From: an uncultured bacterium
GTDB lineage: Bacteria > Zhuqueibacterota > QNDG01 > DTFT01
DNA: 64,000 nt
Assembly (NCBI GenBank): GCA_963736115.1
Contig: CAVTNR010000028.1
Span: 52,492-116,491, forward strand
Direction: 5' to 3'
Below are positions 1-54,287 of the stretch, one piece after another. Position numbers and translations under genes: made by a program. The notes under the pieces were generated by a model. That model was not told where the DNA came from. It ran no database searches and was given only the letters and a program-made list of their open reading frames with translations. The stretch's first letter is position 1; each line of letters begins with the position of its first letter.

Positions 1-868
1 CCGACAACTCAAGCAGAACCGCGTGCAGGAATCCGGGATCCGCTGTATCCTCATCGAAAGTCGTCTCGTTGCTCACGGAACGGACTTCGTGTTCGGTCGT
101 CACCGGAGAATCGTCCCTGCCGAACGCGGACTGGCGGAGCCAGTTCGCGCCTTCTCCGCAGATGCGAATCCAATCTTCCTCTCGGATGTCCTGCAGGTCT
201 CCGATGTTCAAAATGCCAAGCCGGCGAAGACGATCCCGGGTCTTCGGACCGACTCCCGGAATACGACCTACCGGAAGCGGACGAAGAAATACAGCGGTTT
301 CATCCGCCGGAATCCAAACCAGCCCGTCCGGTTTCCGGAGATCGGAGGCGATCTTGGCGGTTGTTTTGGAACAGCCGATGCCGACCGATGCCGTCAGACC
401 TTCCGATTCGCGGATCTCCCCTTTGATCGCTGAAGCTGCGTCCAGGGGGGATCCGGAAAGCCGGCCGGTTCCGGTCATGTCCAGGTAAGCTTCGTCCAGA
501 CCGGCTGGTTCGAGGAGAGGTGTGCGGGCCGACAGCAGGGCCATGATGCGGCCGCTGATTTCTTCATACCGGCTGAAACGCGGACGGACGAACGCGCCCT
601 CGGGGCAGAGACGGAAAGCCTTTGAAATCGGCATGGCGGAAGCAATTCCGAAACGCCTCGCTTCATAGGATGCGGCGGAAACAACGCCCCTGCCGTTCCC
701 GCCTTTGGGATCGGCTCCGACGATGACCGGTTTTCCCCTCAGGCCGGGGTCGTCCAACTGTTCCACGGACGCGAAAAAGGCGTCCATATCCACATGGAAG
801 ATGTGGCGCGGCTCGGGACGCGGCTCACGACGCGTCTCGCTTCCCGACTCGGGACGCGGCTCATCCAT
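1..868 (-). CDS. dinB: DNA polymerase IV (Y-family), partial; 3' end runs off the window
   Basis: Not in the ORF track. Manual translation from ATG 868 gives MDEPRPE...RHIFHVDMDAFFASVEQ...GVVSAASYEARRFGIASAMP...GLDEAYLD, the Y-family catalytic motifs. Confidence 0.93.
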   Translation of the reverse strand, partial: MDEPRPESGSETRREPRPEPRHIFHVDMDAFFASVEQLDDPGLRGKPVIVGADPKGGNGRGVVSAASYEARRFGIASAMPISKAFRLCPEGAFVRPRFSRYEEISGRIMALLSARTPLLEPAGLDEAYLDMTGTGRLSGSPLDAASAIKGEIRESEGLTASVGIGCSKTTAKIASDLRKPDGLVWIPADETAVFLRPLPVGRIPGVGPKTRDRLRRLGILNIGDLQDIREEDWIRICGEGANWLRQSAFGRDDSPVTTEHEVRSVSNETTFDEDTADPGFLHAVLLELS

Positions 869-32753: not shown

Positions 32754-33941
32754 TTATGCCTCGATCCGGATCAGTTCGTTCTGCTCCTCGCCCGCCACCA
32801 CCACCTCCCCGCCGAGCGTGATGAAAACGTCCACTTCGGTGCGCACCGCCATTTTTCCTTCAAGGTAAATGCCCGGCTCCACGGAGAAGCAGATGCCCGG
32901 GATCAGCCGGCGCTCCTCCTTGGTCTCCAGATTGTCGATGTGCACGCCATTGCCGTGGACATTCTCGCCGATCGAATGCCCGGTACGGTGGATGAATCGG
33001 GAGCCGTATCCCGCGTCCCGGACCACTTGCCGGCAGGCGTCGTCCACTTCCCATCCGTAACAAGGCCTGCCCTCGGCGAAACGTTTGCGGACGAAGGACA
33101 CGGCCGCGTTGCGGGCGTCCCGCGCGATGCCGAAAATCTTCTCGTACTCAGCCGGCGGTTCGGCGCCCACATAGCCGCACCAGGTGATGTCCGCGAAAAT
33201 CGCGCCGGGTTCATCCAACTTCGCCCAGAGGTCGATCAGCAGGGTGTCTCCCTTTTGGATCAGACGCGCGTTCGACGGCGTAGGCTCAAAATGGGGATTC
33301 GCAGGATGATCGTTCACGCCGACGATGGGGAATTCGTCCATGCAGGTCAGTTTTTCCTCGCCGAAACGCCGGACGATGAACTTCTGCAGTTCGAACTCAT
33401 TGATGAGTTTCCCCTCGCGGAGCGCCACCCGCACCTGGTCGAAAGCTTCGTCCTTGATCCGGTGGATGAGGCGGCTGGCTTCGAGATGCGACCGGTAGCC
33501 TTCTTCCGAGATGACGGCTTCGAACAGCTGGACCAGATCCGCGGAGGAAACCACTTCGTGCCCGAAACCGCGGACGAGTTCGACTGTTCCCGCGTCAACC
33601 AGGGAGACGTAGGGGATGTTGTTGAGCGGCGAATATTGCATGGCGATCCGCTTCGGCGCAGGATCGAGCATGCGACGCAGTTCTTCATGAAGCTCGGTCC
33701 AGGCCAGATAGGCTGTTTTGCGGCCGGGAAGACCGTCGAGTTTCGTGGGTTCCACGCGGTGTACGAGCCGGACCGGATCGCCTTTCGCCGGTATGAAATA
33801 GTACCACCGCCTGCTGGTAAATTTTCCGGAATCGAGCCCCAGAACGCTGTAGGCGATCGGATCCCGGTTGTGAAAATCGCAGAGCAGCCAGCCGTCGATT
33901 TTTAAATCGACCAGAACATCCTGAATAGCCTTGAGTTCCAT
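32754..33941 (-). CDS. M24 family (Xaa-Pro) peptidase
   Basis: LLIDLW, ADITW, HRTGHSIG, SVEPGIY, VRTE metal ligands. Confidence 0.9.
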   Translation of the reverse strand: MELKAIQDVLVDLKIDGWLLCDFHNRDPIAYSVLGLDSGKFTSRRWYYFIPAKGDPVRLVHRVEPTKLDGLPGRKTAYLAWTELHEELRRMLDPAPKRIAMQYSPLNNIPYVSLVDAGTVELVRGFGHEVVSSADLVQLFEAVISEEGYRSHLEASRLIHRIKDEAFDQVRVALREGKLINEFELQKFIVRRFGEEKLTCMDEFPIVGVNDHPANPHFEPTPSNARLIQKGDTLLIDLWAKLDEPGAIFADITWCGYVGAEPPAEYEKIFGIARDARNAAVSFVRKRFAEGRPCYGWEVDDACRQVVRDAGYGSRFIHRTGHSIGENVHGNGVHIDNLETKEERRLIPGICFSVEPGIYLEGKMAVRTEVDVFITLGGEVVVAGEEQNELIRIEA

Positions 33942-34906: not shown

Positions 34907-35443
34907 TCAGGCCAGCTTGTATCCGATTTTCCGGAGCAGTTCCATGCGGTTCCGGACATCCTCGGGTTTTTCCGTTCCGAGCGGGGACTGGCCGTCGATC
35001 ACACCGAGAATACCCCTTCCCCGTTCGTTCTGCGCCACAATGACATCCGTGGGATTGGCCGTGGCGCAGAAGATCCGGCAGACCTCCGGAACCTGGCGCA
35101 GCACTGGAAGCACGCTCACCGGAAAGACATTCTCGAGGAAAACGATGAAGGCATGGCCCGCGCCGATGCGGAGCAGGTTGGTTTCCGCCAGGCGGGTCAT
35201 TTCAGGGCTCGTTCCGCTGATCCTCAGCAGGCGCGGGCCCGAAGCCTCGCAGAAAGCCAGGCCGAAACGGATGCCTGGAACCGCCTGCACCAGCGTCTCG
35301 TGCACATCCTCGACTGTCTTGATGAAATGGGACTGGCCCAGGATGAAATTGACGGATTCCGGCTTCTCGATGGTGACGCATTCCAGATTGAAGCTCCCCG
35401 CGGCAAGCCGCGGGGAATCTTCTATCTGTAGAGAAGAAATCAT
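34907..35443 (-). CDS. Adenosine-specific kinase family (DUF355); N-terminus now supplied by the inserted repeat
   Basis: NFILGQSHFIKTVED, FGLAFCEASG, IFCATANP, GRGILGVIDG, IGYK. Confidence 0.88.
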   Translation of the reverse strand: MISSLQIEDSPRLAAGSFNLECVTIEKPESVNFILGQSHFIKTVEDVHETLVQAVPGIRFGLAFCEASGPRLLRISGTSPEMTRLAETNLLRIGAGHAFIVFLENVFPVSVLPVLRQVPEVCRIFCATANPTDVIVAQNERGRGILGVIDGQSPLGTEKPEDVRNRMELLRKIGYKLA

Positions 35444-35589
35444 TTTATATTCGCTCGCTTTCCCCGCCGCCCGCTGCGCGGGACCAATTTATTATATTTT
35501 TAGAGTATTGAAGGCAAGCGGCGGGCCTTCAATGAGAAATTATCTTGTTGCTTGGTCCCGCGCAGCGGGGGAATGCGTTCGCTGACAGA
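35388..35589 (-). mobile_element. Non-autonomous two-hairpin element, copy 1 (202 bp, two nested 45-bp cassettes)
   Basis: Shares ends (TCTG.CAGCGA.CGCATTCCCC...GGGGAGCTTCAA) and core (CTCTACAGATAGAAGATT) with the copies at 42239 and 54153; inserted after GTGAA. Confidence 0.85.
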
Positions 35590-35590
35590 T

Positions 35591-37075
35591 TCACGCATGC
35601 GCTCCCTTGCCGGATGACGCGGCGCCTCCGGACACGGCCGGCCGTTCCAGCCATCCGGCGGCGCGGAACAGATCTTCTTCGCCGAAACGCTTTCCGGTCA
35701 GCTGAACGCCGACGGGAAGCCCGTTGCGGTCGCGGCCCGCAGGGACGGATATGGCCGGAAGTCCGGCCAGGGGCGCGGTGACCGTGAATATGTCGGACAG
35801 ATACATGGCCATCGGATCGTCCGTTTTTTCTCCGAGACGGAAAGCGGTTGTAGGCGTCGTCGGTCCCAGCACCACGTCGCAATTCCGGAACACGTCGTCG
35901 AAATCACGGACGATCATTGTCCTCGCCTTCAGGGCCTTGCGGTAATAGGCCTCGACATATCCGGCTGAAAGAACGTATGTCCCCAGCAGAATACGCCGCT
36001 TGACTTCGTTCCCGAAACCCGCATGGCGCGTCCGGACCATCATGGTGTCCAGTCCGTCCTCTTCTCCGGCCCGCAGTCCATAATGGGCGCCTTCGTACCG
36101 GGCGAGGTTCGAGGACGCCTCGGCCGTGCAGATCAGATAGTAAGTCGCGATGCCGTAGGCGGCATGCGGGAGAGAAACCGGCACGAGCCGGCCGCCCGCC
36201 TGTTCCAATCGTCCGGCCGCGGTCTCCACCGCGGCCCGGACGTCCGCGTCAACGCCGTCGTCCAGAAACTCCCTCGGCAATCCCACGCGGAGCCCCGTCA
36301 TTTCCCGGCCGATGGTCTCCGAGTAGCTGGGGACGGGCTCTCCGGAGCAGGTCGCGTCCAAAGGATCCGGTCCTGCCATGACTTCGAGTATGCGCGCCGT
36401 GTCCTCCACGGTCCGTGAAAGACTGCCGATCTGATCGAGCGAAGAGGCGAAAGCCACGAGTCCGTGCCTGGAGACGCGTCCGTAAGTCGGACGCAGTCCG
36501 ACCGTTCCCGTGTGCGCCGCGGGCTGGCGCACGGAACCGCCTGTATCCGTGCCCAACGCGGCCATGACGACGCCGGCCGCGACCGCGGCCGCGGATCCGC
36601 CGCTCGATCCTCCGGGCGTCCGCTCCGGATCCGCGGGGTTCCGGACCGGGCCGAATGCGGAATTCTCGTTGGAAGACCCCATGCCGAATTCGTCCATGTT
36701 GGTCCTGCCGACGACCACCGCTCCTTCCGATCTCAGACGCCGGACAGCCGTGGCCGTGTACGGCGAGACGTATCGCTCCAGCATCCGCGAGCCGCAGGTG
36801 GTTGGAAGGCCTTCCATGGCGATCAGGTCCTTGACCCCCAATATCAAGCCCGCCAGACGGCCGGGACAACCCGCGGCCACGGCCCGGTCCGCGGCGGCCG
36901 CGTCTTCCAGCGCCTGATCGCGGCATAGGGATGTGAATGCGTTCAATCCGGCGCCGTGTTCGGCCAGCCGGAGCGCATGCTCGGCCAGCGTCTCTATCCG
37001 GATTGTACCGGACAGAACGTCTTCGCGGACAGCGGAATAATCCCGGGGAAAATCAGGGGTCGGCTGTCGTGACAT
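35591..37075 (-). CDS. gatA: Asp/Glu-tRNA amidotransferase subunit A
   Basis: TNMDEFGMGSS, PGGSSGGSAA, GTDTGGSVRQPA, EVKRRILLGTYVLS. Confidence 0.96.
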   Translation of the reverse strand: MSRQPTPDFPRDYSAVREDVLSGTIRIETLAEHALRLAEHGAGLNAFTSLCRDQALEDAAAADRAVAAGCPGRLAGLILGVKDLIAMEGLPTTCGSRMLERYVSPYTATAVRRLRSEGAVVVGRTNMDEFGMGSSNENSAFGPVRNPADPERTPGGSSGGSAAAVAAGVVMAALGTDTGGSVRQPAAHTGTVGLRPTYGRVSRHGLVAFASSLDQIGSLSRTVEDTARILEVMAGPDPLDATCSGEPVPSYSETIGREMTGLRVGLPREFLDDGVDADVRAAVETAAGRLEQAGGRLVPVSLPHAAYGIATYYLICTAEASSNLARYEGAHYGLRAGEEDGLDTMMVRTRHAGFGNEVKRRILLGTYVLSAGYVEAYYRKALKARTMIVRDFDDVFRNCDVVLGPTTPTTAFRLGEKTDDPMAMYLSDIFTVTAPLAGLPAISVPAGRDRNGLPVGVQLTGKRFGEEDLFRAAGWLERPAVSGGAASSGKGAHA

Positions 37076-37079
37076 GCGT

Positions 37080-37259
37080 TCAGGGCTTGGCAGAATCGTC
37101 GTTTTTCCGGTCGTCCGGATCGGGATTCTTTGTGGCATCCTTGAATTCGCGGATGCCTTTACCCAGACCCCGCGCCAGCTCCGGGATCTTCTTCGATCCG
37201 AACAGGAGCAGCACCACCAGAAGTATGATCAGAAGTTCGGGCACGCCTAAACTGGGCAT
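37080..37259 (-). CDS. tatA: Twin-arginine translocase TatA
   Basis: [23 protein letters not shown]. Confidence 0.92.
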
Positions 37260-37312
37260 TGGGTCTCCTCTCAATGGCGGACTCCGACGGACGGACGCTT
37301 GCCGCCGCCGGT

Positions 37313-37519
37313 TCATCCTTTCAGTTTCTTTTTTTCATCAGCGTCGTTTTCGTCGATGATTTTACGCATTTCCTCTCGCGCGTTCGAAGTCATCCGCTGC
37401 AGGTCGCGGTATCCTTTTCCCAGCTTGCGCGCCACCTGGGGCAGTTCGCGGCTGCCGAACAACAGCAGGAAGATCAGCAGAATGAGAAGCAGTTCCCCCA
37501 TGCCCACGGGACCGAACAT
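37313..37519 (-). CDS. TatA/TatB-family subunit
   Basis: [11 protein letters not shown]...[17 protein letters not shown]. Confidence 0.85.
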
Positions 37520-37537
37520 GCGGTTTTCCTTTCCCGG

Positions 37538-38284
37538 TCAGGATTCCCTGCGGCTGTCCGCGATGAACAGACTGATAAAGGATTCCTCGCCCCGGGCGAT
37601 GGAAGCGGTCCACTGCAGAATGCCGGACGCGATGAAGATGCAGAACATCGGGAACAAGGTCCGCTCCGGAAAGGACAGAGCCAGGCACAGGCCGGCGAGA
37701 ACCAGGATCGACTTGATGCTCTGCCATCGGTCGATCCGGAAGTTCACTTTCGGCCAGTTATAGGGAATGGTACTCATCATCAGGAGGGGAACCGCCACCG
37801 CGATGAAAAACCAGGGAAGCAGCGGGTTGGAACCGAACCAAGCGTTCTGGAAAAGCCAGAAAGTCGTGACCGTCATGGCTGAGATGGGGATGGTGAGCCC
37901 CAGATATTCATGATCCTCGACTTCGGCGTTCATCACGTTGTACCGCGCCAGACGGTAGGCGCCCCCGAACAGGAAGAAGAAGCTCAGGGGGATGCCGATC
38001 ATCGGATGCAGGGGGACGAAAACGGCCTGGTGCAGAAAAACGGCCGGAGCCAGCCCGAACGAAACGATATCACAGAGCGAATCCAGCTGGAGGCCGAAAC
38101 GGCTCTCGGCGCCCGTCCATCGCGCCAGCCGTCCGTCAACCGCATCGATGATCGCGCAGATGACGACCAGCCAGGCGGCAACGTGAAAATTGCCCTCGAT
38201 GGACTGCAGGATGGAAAAGAATCCGCAGAACAGATTCAGAAAAGTGAAGGTGCTCGGAATCATGGCCGTGGTTCTAGGATGCAT
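37538..38284 (-). CDS. pssA: CDP-diacylglycerol--serine O-phosphatidyltransferase
   Basis: DAVDGRLAR...FGLQLDSLCDIVSFG CDP-alcohol motif; adjacent to psd. Confidence 0.92.
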   Translation of the reverse strand: MHPRTTAMIPSTFTFLNLFCGFFSILQSIEGNFHVAAWLVVICAIIDAVDGRLARWTGAESRFGLQLDSLCDIVSFGLAPAVFLHQAVFVPLHPMIGIPLSFFFLFGGAYRLARYNVMNAEVEDHEYLGLTIPISAMTVTTFWLFQNAWFGSNPLLPWFFIAVAVPLLMMSTIPYNWPKVNFRIDRWQSIKSILVLAGLCLALSFPERTLFPMFCIFIASGILQWTASIARGEESFISLFIADSRRES

Positions 38285-38939
38285 TCAGGAATTCTCCTAT
38301 GATGGTTTCTCCCCCCTTCACGCGTTCCCCGGTTTTCACCCGCAAGGTAACACCCGCGGGAAGAAACAGCTCCGTCCGGGAGCCGAATTTAATCATGCCG
38401 AAGCGCGCCCCCCGGTCGACGGCATCCCCCTCCCGGACGCGGCAGACAATGCGGCGGGCGATGATGCCGGCGATCTGGCGTACGAGAAAACGGCCGGCCG
38501 GGCTCTCGATACCGATCTCCATGCGCTCGTTGACCGCCGATGCTTCGGGCTCAAAGGCCTTGCGGAATTCGCCTTTCCGGTATGAACAATAGGTGACGCG
38601 GCCGTCCACGGGAACACGATTGACGTGCACGTCCCAGACTGAGAGAAAAATCGCCACCCGGACCGCCTTCCCGCCCATGAAGGACGCCTCCTCCACCTCG
38701 GAGATGTCCACAATCTGCCCGTCCGCGGGGGAGACGATTCGGTGGCTGCCTTCCGGAACGATCCGTTCCGGGTCGCGGAAAAAATACAACGTGAACACCA
38801 GGAGCAGGCCGAAGACCGCTCCCGCAACAATGAAAACCCTCCAGTGCGTGAACCGGAACAGCGCCCACATGAGGAGCGCACCAGCCGCCCACGCGGCCAG
38901 CGCGGGCAATGATTCCTTGAACAACCGTCCTCCTATCAT
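38274..38939 (-). CDS. psd: Phosphatidylserine decarboxylase proenzyme
   Basis: FFRDPER, SPADG, DVHVNRVP, KFGSR self-cleavage motif. Confidence 0.93.
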   Translation of the reverse strand: MIGGRLFKESLPALAAWAAGALLMWALFRFTHWRVFIVAGAVFGLLLVFTLYFFRDPERIVPEGSHRIVSPADGQIVDISEVEEASFMGGKAVRVAIFLSVWDVHVNRVPVDGRVTYCSYRKGEFRKAFEPEASAVNERMEIGIESPAGRFLVRQIAGIIARRIVCRVREGDAVDRGARFGMIKFGSRTELFLPAGVTLRVKTGERVKGGETIIGEFLNAS

Positions 38940-38995
38940 CAATGAGATTTTCTGAACAACGCCTCTGCGCGGGACGCTTCCCGGTCCGGAGTCTG

Positions 38996-39709
38996 TCACC
39001 GGACCTCGATGCGCCCGGCCAGATCTTCGAACACTTCGTCCGCGTCCCGTTTGCCGATCTGGAAATGGGACATGTCCAGCCGTCCGTCCGCATCCGCGTC
39101 CCAGAGCTGGCAGGTTTCCGGGCTGATTTCGTCGCCGAGCGCCAGGGTTTCGTTCCGCATGCCGAATTCCAGAACCATATCCGCGAGCCGTAAATTCCGG
39201 CGTCCGAAGAAATCCTTGAGCACCACATTGACCTTTCGGGCGAGCCGGTCCATCTCCTGAATCTGTTCCGGCCGGCCCAAGCCGAGGATCTGGATGTGGT
39301 CCGCCTGAACCATTGGATGATGCAGGGCCGGATTTTTCCAGGTCCACTCCAGCAGGGGCGTTTCGAAGGCCCTGCCCTTCTCGAATCCGTAACGTTTGCA
39401 CAGGCTTCCGGACGCCGCGTTCCAGACCCAGACCGTGAGCGGGATCATGTCCAGCCTTCGCACCGCCATTTCACCCGGCCTGGGAACGGAAACGAAATGG
39501 GTCGGGATATGATAATTCTCCAGAAATCGGAACAGATGGCCTGAGATGGTGCAGGCATGTTTGCCCAGGTTTTTCCCTTTGACGGGCTCTTTGCGGTCCC
39601 CGGCCGTGGTCTCGTTCTTGAACACCAGAAGGGCCGCGTCGTCCCGGTTCGTGGCGTACAGGCGCTTGGTCCTGCCTTCCTGCAGCATTTTCCCTTTTCG
39701 AATGTCCAA
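38996..39709 (-). CDS. purC: SAICAR synthase
   Basis: EGRTKRLY, IPTHF, LEFG, LGDEISPETC; adjacent to purB; several motif residues divergent. Confidence 0.85.
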   Translation of the reverse strand: MDIRKGKMLQEGRTKRLYATNRDDAALLVFKNETTAGDRKEPVKGKNLGKHACTISGHLFRFLENYHIPTHFVSVPRPGEMAVRRLDMIPLTVWVWNAASGSLCKRYGFEKGRAFETPLLEWTWKNPALHHPMVQADHIQILGLGRPEQIQEMDRLARKVNVVLKDFFGRRNLRLADMVLEFGMRNETLALGDEISPETCQLWDADADGRLDMSHFQIGKRDADEVFEDLAGRIEVR

Positions 39710-39761
39710 AGCGAACCTCCCTCGTTATAAATCCGCCGACAGGACGAATCGCGCCGTGTCG

Positions 39762-41060
39762 CTAGGGGATCAGGCCGGCCCTCCGGAAAATCCTGTCCAC
39801 ATGGCGAAGCTGGGCGCCGGGGTCGAAACAGGCCCCGATTTCAGCGGGCGTCAGCGTTTTCAGGATCTCCGGGTGACGGCCCGCGGCCGCCCTGAAGGAC
39901 GCGCCGCTGTTCCAGCATTCCATCGAGAGATCCTGAACGATCCGGTACGCTTCCTCCCTCACAAGGCCCTTCGCAACCAGCGCCAGAAGCAGGGTCTGGG
40001 AGAAAACCAGGCCGCCGGTTTTTTCCAGGTTCTCGAGCATGCGGCCGGGATGAACCACCAGCTTTTCGATCAAAGTCGACGTCTTGGAAATCATGTAATG
40101 CATCAGAATATTGGCGTCCGGAAAAACCACGCGCTCGACCGAGGAATGAGAGATGTCCCGCTCATGCCAGAGGGGCTGGTTTTCCATTCCGCAGAGCGCG
40201 TAGGAGCGCATCAGGCGGGCCAGGCCCGCGATTCGCTCGCAGACGATGGGATTCCGTTTGTGGGGCATGGCCGAGGACCCTTTCTGGCCCTTGGAGAAGT
40301 ATTCCTCGGCCTCGAGCACTTCGGTCCTCTGGAGATGCCGGATCTCGACCGCCATCTTTTCGAGCGTGCCTGCGAGCACGGCCAGGACGGCGAGGTACTC
40401 GGCATGGCGGTCCCGCTGGACGACCTGGTTCGACACGGGCGCTGGACGAAGCCCCAGCCGGCCGCAAGCCTCCTCCTCGACTTCCGGATCCAGATGGGCG
40501 AATGTCCCGACGGCGCCGGAAATCTTGCCGACGGATACGCTCTCGACCGCGGCTTCGAGCCGGCCGATCGACCGGCCGATTTCGTCGTACCACAGGGCGA
40601 GTTTGAGGCCGAAGGTGATGGGTTCCGCGTGCACGCCGTGCGTGCGGCCGATGCACACCGTGTCCTTGTGCTCCAGTGCCCTGCGGCCGATCCGTTCGCG
40701 GAGCCCCTCCAAGCCGCCAAGCAGGAGCCGTCCCGCCTCCCCGAGCTGAAGCGAAGTGGCCGTGTCCAGAACGTCCGACGAGGTCATGCCCATATGGATG
40801 AACCGGGATTCGGGTCCGACTTTCTCGGCCACGCTGGTGAGAAAAGCGATGACATCGTGCTGGACCGTTTCCTCGATTTCGGCGATCCGGATCGGGTCGA
40901 ATCCGGCCCTGGTCCGAATGACGTCCATCGCCCCGGCGGGGATCACGCCGCGGCCGGCCTGGACCTCGCACACCGCGAGCTCCACATCCAGCCATTTCCG
41001 GTAGCGGTTCTCCAGGCTCCAGACGGCGCCCATTTCGGGCAGGGTGTAGCGGTCGATCAC
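39762..41060 (-). CDS. purB: Adenylosuccinate lyase
   Basis: GRTHGVHAEP, GSSAMPHKRNP, HERDISHSSVER. Confidence 0.97.
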   Translation of the reverse strand: MIDRYTLPEMGAVWSLENRYRKWLDVELAVCEVQAGRGVIPAGAMDVIRTRAGFDPIRIAEIEETVQHDVIAFLTSVAEKVGPESRFIHMGMTSSDVLDTATSLQLGEAGRLLLGGLEGLRERIGRRALEHKDTVCIGRTHGVHAEPITFGLKLALWYDEIGRSIGRLEAAVESVSVGKISGAVGTFAHLDPEVEEEACGRLGLRPAPVSNQVVQRDRHAEYLAVLAVLAGTLEKMAVEIRHLQRTEVLEAEEYFSKGQKGSSAMPHKRNPIVCERIAGLARLMRSYALCGMENQPLWHERDISHSSVERVVFPDANILMHYMISKTSTLIEKLVVHPGRMLENLEKTGGLVFSQTLLLALVAKGLVREEAYRIVQDLSMECWNSGASFRAAAGRHPEILKTLTPAEIGACFDPGAQLRHVDRIFRRAGLIP

Positions 41061-41061
41061 G

Positions 41062-42423
41062 TCAGCGCTCCTCCGTCCCCGGTTTGGGGCTCAGTACCAG
41101 CCGATACAGCCTTCCGTTCCGGAAAATCCCCAAATCGACGGGCGTTACCGCGTCCGGGTCGAACAGCTCGGTGAAATTCCGGTAGGCGTCCGCGCCGCGA
41201 ACCGGCTTCTGGTTGATAGTGATTATGACATCCCCCGGCCGCAGATCCGAACGTCCGGCCGGGCTTCCGGTCCGTATGCTTTCGATGCGGACCCCGTCAC
41301 GGCTGGAGATGCCGAGGCGCATGGCTTCGGCCGCGCTCAGCTCCCTGATTCCGATGCCGGTCCACGACTCGCGCTCCACGCGTCCGGCCGTCTTCAGGGC
41401 GGGCAGAATGGCCTTGACGCGGTGTATGGGAATCGCGAATCCGATGCCGATCGAGGTCTTTTCGTAATTACTGCCCGAAATGATGAAGGCGTTGATGCCG
41501 ATGCACTCGCCCAGGCTGTTGACGAGCGGGCCGCCGCTGTTTCCGCCGTTGATGGCCGCGTCCGTCTGGATCATGTCCCCGTACGAGCGGCCGGCGATGC
41601 GCAGTTCGCCCTTGAAATTCATGCCGATCGCGCTGACGACGCCGACGGTGACCGTCGGCTTGGAATTGACGTCGAACAGGCCGAACGGATTGCCCAGGGC
41701 GATCACCCATTCGCCGATGAGAATATCCCGCGAATCGCCCAGTGGAATAAACGGGAAACGGGTCCCCTTGATTTTGAGAAGGGCGACGTCGAACAGAAAA
41801 TCCGCTCCGACGCGCTCGGCCGTGTACTGCTTCCCGTCCGTGGTCGTCACGATGATTTCAGATGCGTCGTGGACCACGTGTTCGTTCGTGAGAACGTAGC
41901 CGTCCCGTGAAATCAGGAAACCGGACCCGAGCCCCTGAACCCGCTGGGTCATCTCGCGGGGTTCGAAAAACATGCGAAAAAACGGATCATCGAACGGCGA
42001 CGTCTCGACCCGCTGAATCTGGGTCACGTTGATGCCAACCACGGCAGGGCTGACATCCGCGACAGCCCGGGTGATGGCGCTTTGCCGCGACTGGCTGACC
42101 GCGTCGTTGAGGTCCGCCCGGGTCTGCGCGTAGACGGCCTGCCCGGCTGCGGGCGGAAGGGCCTGCGGTCCGGACTTCCGGCCGCAGGCGAGGACCATCA
42201 GGGCAGCCACAGTCAGGAAACTTTTAAATGAGCGAATATTGAAGCTCCCCGCCGCAAGCGGCGGGGAATCTTCTATCTGTAGAGAAGAGACATCTGATAT
42301 TCGCTCGCTTACCCCGCGGCCCCGCTTCGCGGGACCAATCGATTCTATGCCTTCTGGTTGAAGGCAAGCCGCGGGGAATGCGCTCGCTGACAGATTCATA
42401 CTGCTTTTCCGATAATCGTTCAT
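41062..42423 (-). CDS. HtrA/DegP-like serine protease with one PDZ domain, probable lipoprotein, with in-frame repeat insertion
   Basis: GSGF, TNEHVV, DVALLK, QTDAAINGGNSGGPL; lipobox VLAC after a 52-aa repeat-derived insert. Confidence 0.9.
   Translation of the reverse strand: MNDYRKSSMNLSASAFPAACLQPEGIESIGPAKRGRGVSERISDVSSLQIEDSPPLAAGSFNIRSFKSFLTVAALMVLACGRKSGPQALPPAAGQAVYAQTRADLNDAVSQSRQSAITRAVADVSPAVVGINVTQIQRVETSPFDDPFFRMFFEPREMTQRVQGLGSGFLISRDGYVLTNEHVVHDASEIIVTTTDGKQYTAERVGADFLFDVALLKIKGTRFPFIPLGDSRDILIGEWVIALGNPFGLFDVNSKPTVTVGVVSAIGMNFKGELRIAGRSYGDMIQTDAAINGGNSGGPLVNSLGECIGINAFIISGSNYEKTSIGIGFAIPIHRVKAILPALKTAGRVERESWTGIGIRELSAAEAMRLGISSRDGVRIESIRTGSPAGRSDLRPGDVIITINQKPVRGADAYRNFTELFDPDAVTPVDLGIFRNGRLYRLVLSPKPGTEER
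42239..42394 (-). mobile_element. Non-autonomous two-hairpin element, copy 2 (156 bp, one nested 45-bp cassette)
   Basis: Same ends and core as copies 1 and 3; inserted after ATGAA; 156 = 111 + 45. Confidence 0.87.
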
Positions 42424-53590: not shown

Positions 53591-54287
53591 GGCCCGGATA
53601 CACGCGGACATTGTCCTCCAGAATCAGCAGTCCGTTCCGTATGGACTGCATAAGCTCGCGCTCCGAGGAACCGGGAAAATCTGTTCTCCCGACCGATCCC
53701 CGGAACAGGGTGTCCCCCACCAGGACGAATCCCTCGCCAGCGAAACAGACTCCGCCGGGTGTGTGACCCGGTGTGTGGATCACGCGAAGCCCGTCCCCGG
53801 GCCCGAATGGAATTACGTCCCCGTCTTGCAGAAGGCCGTCTGCCGGTTCCGTCCGGATGTCAAGTCCGATGAACAGGGACATATTGGCTTCCGGCCGAAT
53901 CAGCAGTTCCGCGTCCGCCGGATGGATCCATACCGAGGCGGAACACCGTGACCGGAAATCGGGGACACCCGCGATATGATCAAAATGGCCGTGGGTCAGC
54001 AGAATGCGTTCTACAGCCAGACCTTCCTGAACCAGAAACCGCCCCACCGCTCCGCCGGGTTCGGCCGGATCGACCAGGATGCAGGTCTTCCGGCCCGGAT
54101 CGATCAGAACATAGGTGTTGGTGTCGAGCGGGCCGCAAGCGAAACGCTTGATTTGAAGCTCCCCGCCGCAAGCGGCGGGGAATCTTCTATCTGTAGAGAA
54201 AAGACATCTTATATTCGCTCGCTTACCCCGGGGCAAGCCCCGGGGAATGCGCTCGCTGTCAGATTCAATGGAAGCATCCGTATTCAG
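53523..54287 (-). CDS. MBL-fold metallo-hydrolase (glyoxalase II-like) with in-frame repeat insertion near the N-terminus
   Basis: THGHFDH, HTPGHTPG, GDTLF, GRTD, YPGHG; start uncertain, CTG 54287 proposed. Confidence 0.88.
   Translation of the reverse strand: MNTDASIESDSERIPRGLPRGKRANIRCLFSTDRRFPAACGGELQIKRFACGPLDTNTYVLIDPGRKTCILVDPAEPGGAVGRFLVQEGLAVERILLTHGHFDHIAGVPDFRSRCSASVWIHPADAELLIRPEANMSLFIGLDIRTEPADGLLQDGDVIPFGPGDGLRVIHTPGHTPGGVCFAGEGFVLVGDTLFRGSVGRTDFPGSSERELMQSIRNGLLILEDNVRVYPGHGETTEIGFERKHNPFLSGRFR
54153..54263 (-). mobile_element. Non-autonomous two-hairpin element, copy 3 (111 bp basic form)
   Basis: TCTGACAGCGAGCGCATT-CCCCGGGGCTTGCCCCGGGG-core-CCCCGCCGCTTGCGGCGGGG-AGCTTCAA, inserted after TTGAA. 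Confidence 0.87.

Follow-up and report, generated by a model that had tools for sequence, protein, structure and literature searches.

Insertion sequences of the IS200/IS605 family carry two subterminal hairpins with offset cleavage sites, and a TCAA motif is known for IS608. Cyanobacterial small dispersed repeats (SDR1-8), in the account of Elhai and colleagues from 2008, are reportedly tiny, have a conserved structure and nest in other repeats and in their own copies. For IS200/IS605 elements and for RAYTs, the tyrosine transposases that go with repetitive extragenic palindromes (REPs), one study describes how the tetranucleotide 5′ of a hairpin selects the cleavage site by complementarity, a GTAG to GTGG change having shifted cleavage from CT to CC (PMC8266576); another reports that RAYTs cleave at C|T and need little else (PMC3333891). 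SDR5 is described as taking HIP1 as its insertion site, the SDRs themselves being left unexplained in the accounts cited (PMC5861425, PMC3116915), and SDRs are given as 21-27 nucleotides (nt) long and as confined to Nostocaceae (PMC5861425). We examined a 64,000-nt stretch (the window; positions 52492-116491 of contig C28, G+C 0.61) of the 3.34-Mb, 31-contig genome assembly of an uncultured bacterium (G000), in which short cassettes with a TCAA-like motif lie in the hairpins of a 111-nt host repeat. These cassettes are a large lineage-specific family of very small mobile elements, and very probably an independently mobile one.

Cassettes in the window and in related genomes

Analysis of the window gave three matches to the pattern GCCTTCAA-N17-22-TTGGTCCCGC, at 35478-35515 (minus strand), 35525-35561 (plus) and 42329-42365 (minus); 0 of 100 shuffles gave any. 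After each match, NNN-GCGGG closes a 5-bp CCCGC/GCGGG hairpin. When the three window copies of the host repeat are aligned, copy 3 is empty, copy 2 contains one additional 45-nt block and copy 1 contains two (Table 1). The initial annotation of this DNA had described three 45-nt insertions in hairpins of one repeat, which the alignment bears out, and its coordinates are right within the junction ambiguity: 1 nt for 35471-35515 and 42321-42365, and -2 to +1 nt for 35525-35569. The alignment also agrees with the placement of all three in the same host hairpin, two of them at one position, as both minus-strand cassettes occupy a single site in host hairpin 2 (..CTTG|CGG.. on the minus strand), each of them lying between the G and the C.

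Table 1. Host repeats and cassettes in the window
Feature	Position	Strand	Evidence
Host repeat copy 1 with two cassettes, 202 nt	35390..35591	+	3-copy alignment, empty orthologous sites
Cassette 1, loop-type, CCTTCAA-TACTCTAAAAATATAATAAA-TTGGT-CCCGC GCA GCGGG	35470..35514	-	host-repeat alignment
Cassette 2, foot-type, core TGAGAAATTATCTTGTTGC	35525..35569	+	host-repeat alignment
Host repeat copy 2 with one cassette, 156 nt	42241..42396	+	alignment; absent from G001/G002 orthologous site
Cassette 3, loop-type, core CCAGAAGGCATAGAATCGA	42320..42364	-	host-repeat alignment
Host repeat copy 3, no cassette, 111 nt, paralogous empty reference	54155..54265	+	3-copy alignment

Cassette 2 lies near the 3′ foot of the hairpin that hosts cassette 1, head-to-head with it and 9 nt away, and the doublet folds as a single long hairpin (folding free energy, dG, -36.8 kcal/mol; z -5.25). 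Cassette 3 has a 5′ hairpin (GCCTTC/GAAGGC) in addition to the 3′ hairpin (dG -12.2; z -4.68). By direct count, 18/20, 13/19 and 10/19 positions of the window cores are A or T. The cores had been called unrelated and AT-rich; they do differ from one another and are AT-rich, but they are not unique, since all three recur, identical or nearly so, elsewhere in G000 and in sister genomes. The core of cassette 1 is identical at one more G000 locus and in G001 and G003, and cassette 3 has identical copies on contig C2 and in G001.

The 111-nt host repeat is itself mobile, both window loci being empty in sister genomes. The whole copy-1 composite is missing at the orthologous site in G001 and G003, and the whole copy-2 composite at that in G001 and G002. 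One metagenome contig corresponds to the empty copy-1 site, joining 35383 to 35586 with 6 nt that fit either side; other metagenome contig joints may stem from paralogous repeats or other organisms. The central motif of the host repeat is present in 53 copies in G000, with at least one cassette nearby in 34 of them. The host repeat of copy 1 landed in a spacer of ~8 nt, with a GatA-like amidase gene (35591-37138, minus strand) ending in its stop codon on one side and the next gene starting on the other, and its junctions, judged from the empty sites in G001 (L099) and G003 (L098), have up to 6 nt in common (CAGATT). The host repeat starts with TTGAAGCT and ends with AGATTCAA, a short inverted motif related to the TTCAA of the cassette.

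Comparison of presence and absence at orthologous sites sets the unit as 43-48 nt with the form YCTTCAA-core-TTGRT-CCSGC-NNN-GSCGG, often followed by A. The core is AT-rich and 15-24 nt long, and the terminal hairpin consists of 5-6 G+C base pairs, often closed by T-A; a perfect 5-bp stem is found in 120 of the 159 copies in G000. The cassette ends have only a short imperfect inverted motif in common (GYC..CAA / TTGRTC). Of the 159 copies, 153 have a base pair between the first base of the unit (Y) and base four of TTGRT (R), as C:G in 113 and T:A in 40, with other combinations in 6. Each core-length class (17, 19 or 20 nt) taken by itself keeps this pairing (95-100% paired), as do four core clusters that hold both forms, and 79 of 80 copies from relatives are paired. 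Loci in G026, G023 and G028 picked by a pattern that leaves Y free (not L095) comprise 21 T:A copies and one C:A copy. Covariation is also seen in the middle pair of the terminal hairpin (C-G in 44 copies, G-C in 12) and, within one subfamily, in the 5′ hairpin (GCCTTC/GAAGGC vs GTCTTC/GAAGAC).

A search of the genome and its relatives for the flank-core-flank pattern, proposed in the initial annotation, yielded many further copies. With one substitution allowed per flank, G000 contains 159 copies, compared with 2 in the reversed-genome control, and dozens are found per sister genome. Exact matches to the pattern number 52 in G000, 36, 17 and 24 in the three sister genomes and one apiece in G004, G028 and G030; a further 34 relatives have none, and every backward control gave 0. 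With the hairpin added to the pattern and Y and R left free, matches are present in 9 of the 31 genomes of the order (G000, 103; G001, 65; G002, 54; G003, 47; G026, 15; G028, 5; G023, 4; G005, 4; G004, 1), with controls of 0. A scan of a one-genome-per-species collection gave at least 96 matches. The hairpin is present in 35 among the matches listed; 28 of these 35, the loci with listed titles, all come from four metagenome-assembled genome assemblies, and among the matches listed those in named genera are without the hairpin and look like chance. Our literature search found no description of such a cassette.

In three other genera (G026, G023 and G028; L167-L186) the cassette is central in a conserved unit of ~100 nt with the layout ..GCAAAAAGGCCGRTTCTTTTG[cassette]GGTWCTTTTCTT-loop-AAGAAAAGWAC, preceded in G026 by a long G+C hairpin. 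Rfam searches with the ~100-nt units of these relatives returned nothing credible, and this context is absent from G000.

The variable middles of the cassettes mark subfamilies and are not captured spacers. Clustering at no more than 4 mismatches groups the 159 cores into 43 clusters, the largest four of which (47, 42, 18 and 8) account for 115 copies. Near-full matches beyond the 159 listed copies were obtained for 20 of 136 distinct cores, compared with 2 for shuffled cores, and almost all of the matches listed lie between degenerate cassette ends. Searches with the window doublet gave nothing significant in a phage collection (best E 0.07) or a plasmid collection (best E 0.2). At orthologous positions on G000 contigs in general (among them L142 compared with C8 near 111165, and L124 compared with C22 near 134276) the ends and hairpin are kept, the cores have diverged far more than the flanking DNA, and the terminal hairpins contain compensatory changes.

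Insertion sites and in-frame copies

The 159 copies in G000 occupy diverse contexts. For 41 of them an inverted partner follows head-to-head at a distance of 9-10 nt. Hairpins of the form CCCCGSSGC..GSSCGGGG hold 34 in their loops and 8 at their 3′ feet, another 11 are nested in the terminal loop of a second cassette, and REPs belonging to two RAYT families house 11 more; the other 54 are elsewhere, including in unique sequence. A G is directly 5′ of the unit in 145 of 159 copies, the commonest left flanks being CTTG| (56), CGGG| (46) and GAAG| (11). When the target sites are restored, 39% of 120 fold with a dG of -8 kcal/mol or lower, compared with 1.9% of 2000 random 28-mers. Insertions also adjoin sequences that resemble the cassette's own 5′ end, as in tandem arrays of period 46 and in a coding region of G026.

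Independent mobility of the cassettes is well supported by orthologous sites. For 40 cassette loci from G001 and G003 compared with G000, 27 were alignable, 10 had a one-sided flank and 3 had no orthologous flank. In G001, but not in G000, the loop of an orthologous cassette is interrupted at G|C by a 43-nt unit, CCTTCAA..GCGGGA. A 45/46-nt unit in G001 sits inside a long hairpin, AACGCTCCGGGAGGTT..AACCTCCCGGAGCGTT, that is empty in G000. An orthologous alignment contains a 48-nt gap in a REP loop. One nested array comprises three units in G001 and two in G000, and its stacked 3′ arms match these in number. The D-loop of a 5′ fragment of tRNA-Val in G028 is split at ..AGTTG|GTTA.. by a unit of 48 nt, with an intact tRNA 140 nt downstream. 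The three clean presence/absence sites have a junction ambiguity of 0-1 nt and no target duplication. The nested, tandem and head-to-head arrays, the last resembling the REP doublets called REPINs, are thus shown to result from these insertions. The suggestion of a minimal hyper-parasitic element that targets hairpins gains from the at least seven kinds of context, the presence/absence at orthologous sites and the hairpin-like restored targets; copies are found outside the host repeat in REPs, other cassettes, a tRNA and unique sequence. A nested three-cassette array in G001 (L129, contig C13, ~32815-32990) has seven stacked CGGGA-like 3′ arms, more than its 5′ arms, and this surplus may point to slippage or to leftovers from lost units.

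The initial remark that a 45-nt insertion is 15 codons long and preserves the reading frame acquires some substance from two cases, the 42241-42396 composite and an integrase gene in G026. The first concerns a lipoprotein-like open reading frame (ORF; 41062-42399, minus strand), in which the composite lies directly behind the ATG (42399-42397) and the frame stays open; 52 residues are added ahead of a signal-peptide-like stretch (..FLTVAALMVLAC), and the G002 orthologue starts MKNRSFIL, without the insert. The second (L188, contig C248 of G026, ~559-621, minus strand) is a complete T:A-type cassette, antisense in the 5′ coding region of a tyrosine-recombinase (integrase) gene, that adds 15 residues in frame (RFIED[PALRDQAILQRFIED]MQLKG) relative to the G020 orthologue. 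It is bracketed by a 12-nt direct repeat like the cassette's own 5′ end, and the recombinase gene lies upstream of an IS91-family transposase that is split there in two frames. In practice, cassettes break assemblies, make long palindromes and can add 15 in-frame codons, and should be masked in the annotation of this lineage.

Possible mechanisms and the search for an enzyme

We infer a mechanism in which the cassette would be a non-autonomous 43-48-nt element moved as single-stranded DNA in trans by a putative HUH/Y1-type nuclease-ligase of the IS200/IS605-RAYT kind. The role proposed for the TGRT 5′ of CCSGC is that of a guide to the cleavage site, with which it would form base pairs: R would pair with Y, the first base of the element, and the G that precedes R with the next C, and in joined ends (..GGGA|YC..) the guide T could pair with the terminal A. 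Re-use of the left-end cleavage site as a target would place insertions beside sequences like the element's own left end. The preferred targets observed are the junction of loop and 3′ arm, or the foot, of a G+C hairpin, directly 3′ of G. We propose a single-strand HUH/Y1 reaction because it fits the Y:R pairing, the lack of target duplication and the preferential use of extruded hairpins.

A mobile, hairpin-targeting miniature family combined with a single-strand mechanism in trans is the best overall explanation, and we consider it on balance probable. The assignment of the mechanism to the HUH/Y1 kind, taken on its own, is tentative. A bolder version is unlikely: a self-guided minimal single-strand transposon that at 43 nt would be the smallest known with defined ends, a loop hyperparasite moved by an enzyme beyond the repeat-flanked RAYTs and the families detected here. 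If true, its TGRT guide would pair with its own joined ends, its hosts would be REPs, miniature inverted-repeat transposable elements (MITEs), tRNA-like stems and itself, and it would represent a new class of hairpin-invading mobile DNA limited to one poorly known bacterial order.

Several observations, from the cassettes and from the RAYT genes, weigh against the favored explanation. Some insertions, namely the foot-type copies and the 45/46-nt G001 unit, are in stems and not in loops. Orientation has no bias with respect to local GC skew (62 vs 69, p = 0.6), but this skew is weak, and inverted pairs, which cancel out, make up a quarter of the copies. Only 36 of 120 copies have the terminal A, and the proposed geometry requires a G.T pair at -1, unlike the Watson-Crick pair of RAYT systems. 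The ~100-nt unit of the relatives is flanked by a direct repeat, GGTTCTTTT, that a single-strand model leaves unexplained. At orthologous sites the cores diverge more than the flanking DNA, which suggests replacement or exchange of cassettes at a fixed site; such replacement or exchange fits as well as simple insertion. Each RAYT of G000 is flanked by its own GTAG-type REP and not by cassettes. Among 14 RAYT loci in relatives, one cassette only is nearby, nested in that RAYT's own REP. The C17-type RAYT is found only in G000, with no orthologue even in sister genomes, and the C19-type RAYT is limited to the four genus genomes (70-77% identity), while cassettes reach other families.

Three RAYT genes exceed the NCBIfam curated cut-off in G000, where the Y1 genes found are of the RAYT type only; no Y1 transposase matched the window's contig and no classical TnpA was found in G000. 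The phyletic profiles of two RAYTs were considered as a clue to the enzyme, and neither tracks cassette presence across the order. The REPs that flank the RAYT genes lie at 1220-1262 and 1790-1990 (L003), 1320-1350 and 1860-2060 (L002), and 1255-1385 and 2225-2255 (L001). They form three families, whose motifs are GTAGGTCCGAAATGCCGAG.. in 56 copies, GGTAGCCGCAGCC.. in 65 and GGGAGTGCCGCG.. in 3; families one and two are hosts for cassettes.

Other enzyme families were searched in G000-G004, with 14 controls. TnpB (PF07282) was found in 0/5 genomes (8/14 controls positive), which leaves the initial link to TnpB and its guides without support. Reverse transcriptase (PF00078) was likewise found in 0/5 (3/14 controls positive). 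The search for Y2 enzymes with PF04986 was uninformative, the controls being silent as well, and NCBIfam NF033538 was used instead; this IS91-family model exceeded its cut-off in 4 of the 31 genomes of the order, one of which (G026) has cassettes and none of which is among the four genus genomes, and IS91 was set aside. Multi-copy ORFs, as a route to a transposase, gave only outer-membrane-like, DnaK-like and spurious frames. In the search for long elements bounded by cassette ends, solo right ends proved to be degenerate cassettes or chance matches, and solo left ends look like chance 9-mers in coding DNA. Genes between cassette clusters included nothing recognizable from their listing, no domain searches having been run on them. 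The absence of an enzyme is not proven by these results, because the genomes are 76-96% complete and repeats are often missing from assemblies.

Movement as a double-stranded mini-circle by a site-specific recombinase, either an IS110-type DEDD enzyme together with its bridge RNA or one of the serine or tyrosine class, is improbable. IS110 biology leads to the expectation of a 2-nt core shared at both junctions, whereas cassette junctions share at most 1 nt, and none for T-type copies. The targets have little common sequence besides the G. An IS110-family gene (PF01548) is present in both G000 and G001, which favors such a route, but these are 2 of 5 genomes; the gene is single-copy in G000, and IS110 genes occur sporadically, their DNA being unrelated from one genome to the other and their flanks lacking cassette-like ends, so that IS110 was rejected as a candidate. 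As far as the published accounts describe them, IS110-family elements enter REPs without long duplications and their sub-modules can move alone, the ssr9 module of ISPpu9 being a precedent (PMC12288879, PMC1525189). In G000, whose G+C content is 60%, a lone AT-rich element of the IS110 family (L165; C14:86661-90077) encodes a 355-aa transposase, and ~70 nt upstream of the transposase gene recur on C12, C16 and C14.

Template switching or microhomology repair at stalled forks between similar G+C hairpins, with no dedicated enzyme, has a slightly smaller chance. Many target arms resemble the cassette hairpin (CCGC/GCGG) and so provide short junction homologies, and the coding insertion in G026 is flanked by its 12-nt direct repeat resembling the cassette 5′ end. 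The same ends occur, however, at non-homologous sites, including the REP loop at ..CCTG|AAGG.., the D-loop at ..GTTG|GTTA.. and unique sequence, and the strict Y:R pairing together with the conserved ends indicates selection on a recognized structure.

It is highly unlikely that the cassettes are structural variants of the host repeats that lack mobility of their own and were spread by duplication or conversion of those repeats. Such an origin would suit the 34 of 53 host repeats that carry at least one cassette, the many composites of cassette and host gained or lost as whole blocks between species, and one 53-nt gap that takes out a cassette plus a small host hairpin. It is contradicted by the same ends in unrelated contexts (two REP families, the D-loop of a tRNA, unique DNA and a coding region), by single-unit presence/absence inside shared orthologous repeats, and by copies in genera without the 111-nt host context.

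An RNA intermediate, as proposed for the cyanobacterial SDRs, is if anything a shade less likely again. The TCAA/TTGR closing helix tolerates G.U-type pairs, and the SDRs of Elhai and colleagues are said to be alike in size and nesting; reverse transcriptase was not found in the five genomes searched, Rfam matched two tRNAs only in the window and no RNA family in the cassettes, and a promoter scan of 35300-35700 found no promoter-like site within or next to the window copies.

A dispersed repeat-spacer or guide unit, with the flanks as a scaffold and the core as a captured sequence of 19-20 nt (CRISPR- or TnpB-like), retains next to no probability: the three window cores are mutually different, and a 17-20-nt core with TTCAA recalls TnpB guides, but capture, the alternative raised in the initial annotation, is rejected because the cores cluster, are shared identically with sister genomes and match almost nothing outside cassettes in host DNA and nothing significantly in the phage and plasmid collections searched, and TnpB was not detected in the five genomes.

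Comparison with known families

IS91 elements take CTTG/GTTC targets without duplication and have a hairpin near one end, and CTTG is the commonest left flank of the cassettes (56/159); the IS91 transposase is found in 4 of 31 genomes, one with cassettes. Rickettsia palindromic elements (RPEs) are small palindromic repeats of ~100-150 bp that can sit in frame in genes; we know of no RPEs nested in hairpin loops. The in-frame 156-nt composite behind a start codon and the 45-nt cassette in an integrase gene resemble RPEs, while most cassettes are intergenic and within other repeats. Of the features of classical DDE-transposon MITEs, neither a target site duplication (at the clean sites) nor real terminal inverted repeats were found.

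The cassettes share with ISPpu9/ssr9 and ISPpu10 of the IS110 family, in the parts of their published description considered here, insertion into extragenic palindromes and the form of small selfish modules served by a transposase in trans. Those modules differ in being hundreds of nt long and in needing IS110 ends, and the IS110 genes of the cassette-bearing genomes are sporadic and unrelated. The likeness to cyanobacterial SDRs is one of behavior only, in tiny size and in nesting in other repeats and in themselves; the sequences are unrelated, and the cassette has exact boundaries, a G| target and Y:R pairing.

Likeness to REPs, REPINs and bacterial interspersed mosaic elements (BIMEs) with their RAYTs is more extensive. 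Both are short and high-copy, with a G+C hairpin and a conserved tetranucleotide 5′ of it; inverted doublets fold as one hairpin, as in REPINs (41/159 with a partner 9-10 nt away), and mosaic arrays are formed; a guide-like base covaries with the base at the predicted cleavage site, and RAYT genes are present in G000. The cassette differs in its motif, which is TTGG/TTGA(T) in all listed copies and never GTAG, the GTAG-type REPs of G000 being different sequences, and in an AT-rich 5′ extension of 27-35 nt whose end is conserved in its own right. Cassettes flank none of the RAYTs examined and instead insert into the REPs of the resident RAYTs. To our knowledge, nesting inside their own copies is not a described feature of REPs.

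With IS200/IS605 elements, as one study presents them, the cassettes have in common insertion 3′ of a short site without duplication, hairpins, and a guide (putative in the cassettes) 5′ of the hairpin foot (PMC8266576). The guide rule of that family is compatible with the Y:R pairing (153/159 and 79/80), with cleavage placed from sequence and a G.T pair at -1. The cassette differs in having one terminal hairpin, with cleavage predicted at its foot, and a length of only 43-48 nt, and no classical TnpA was found in G000 and no TnpB in G000-G004.

At 43-48 nt, and with a hairpin, a guide-like motif and a putative cleavage site in one piece, the cassettes give a lower bound on the size of mobile DNA that has defined ends. 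They show REPs and MITEs parasitized by a still smaller element, and their nested, tandem and inverted insertions form a natural series from which target choice can be read directly. The Y-R base-pair rule offers a testable probe of HUH/Y1 cleavage logic on a minimal substrate.

In kind, the cassettes are miniature non-autonomous hairpin repeats that fail the defining tests run for each known family. There is a real chance that they represent a new class, if the enzyme that moves them proves to be new. In logic they appear most like REP/BIME-RAYT systems and IS200/IS605 elements, and in behavior most like the cyanobacterial SDRs.

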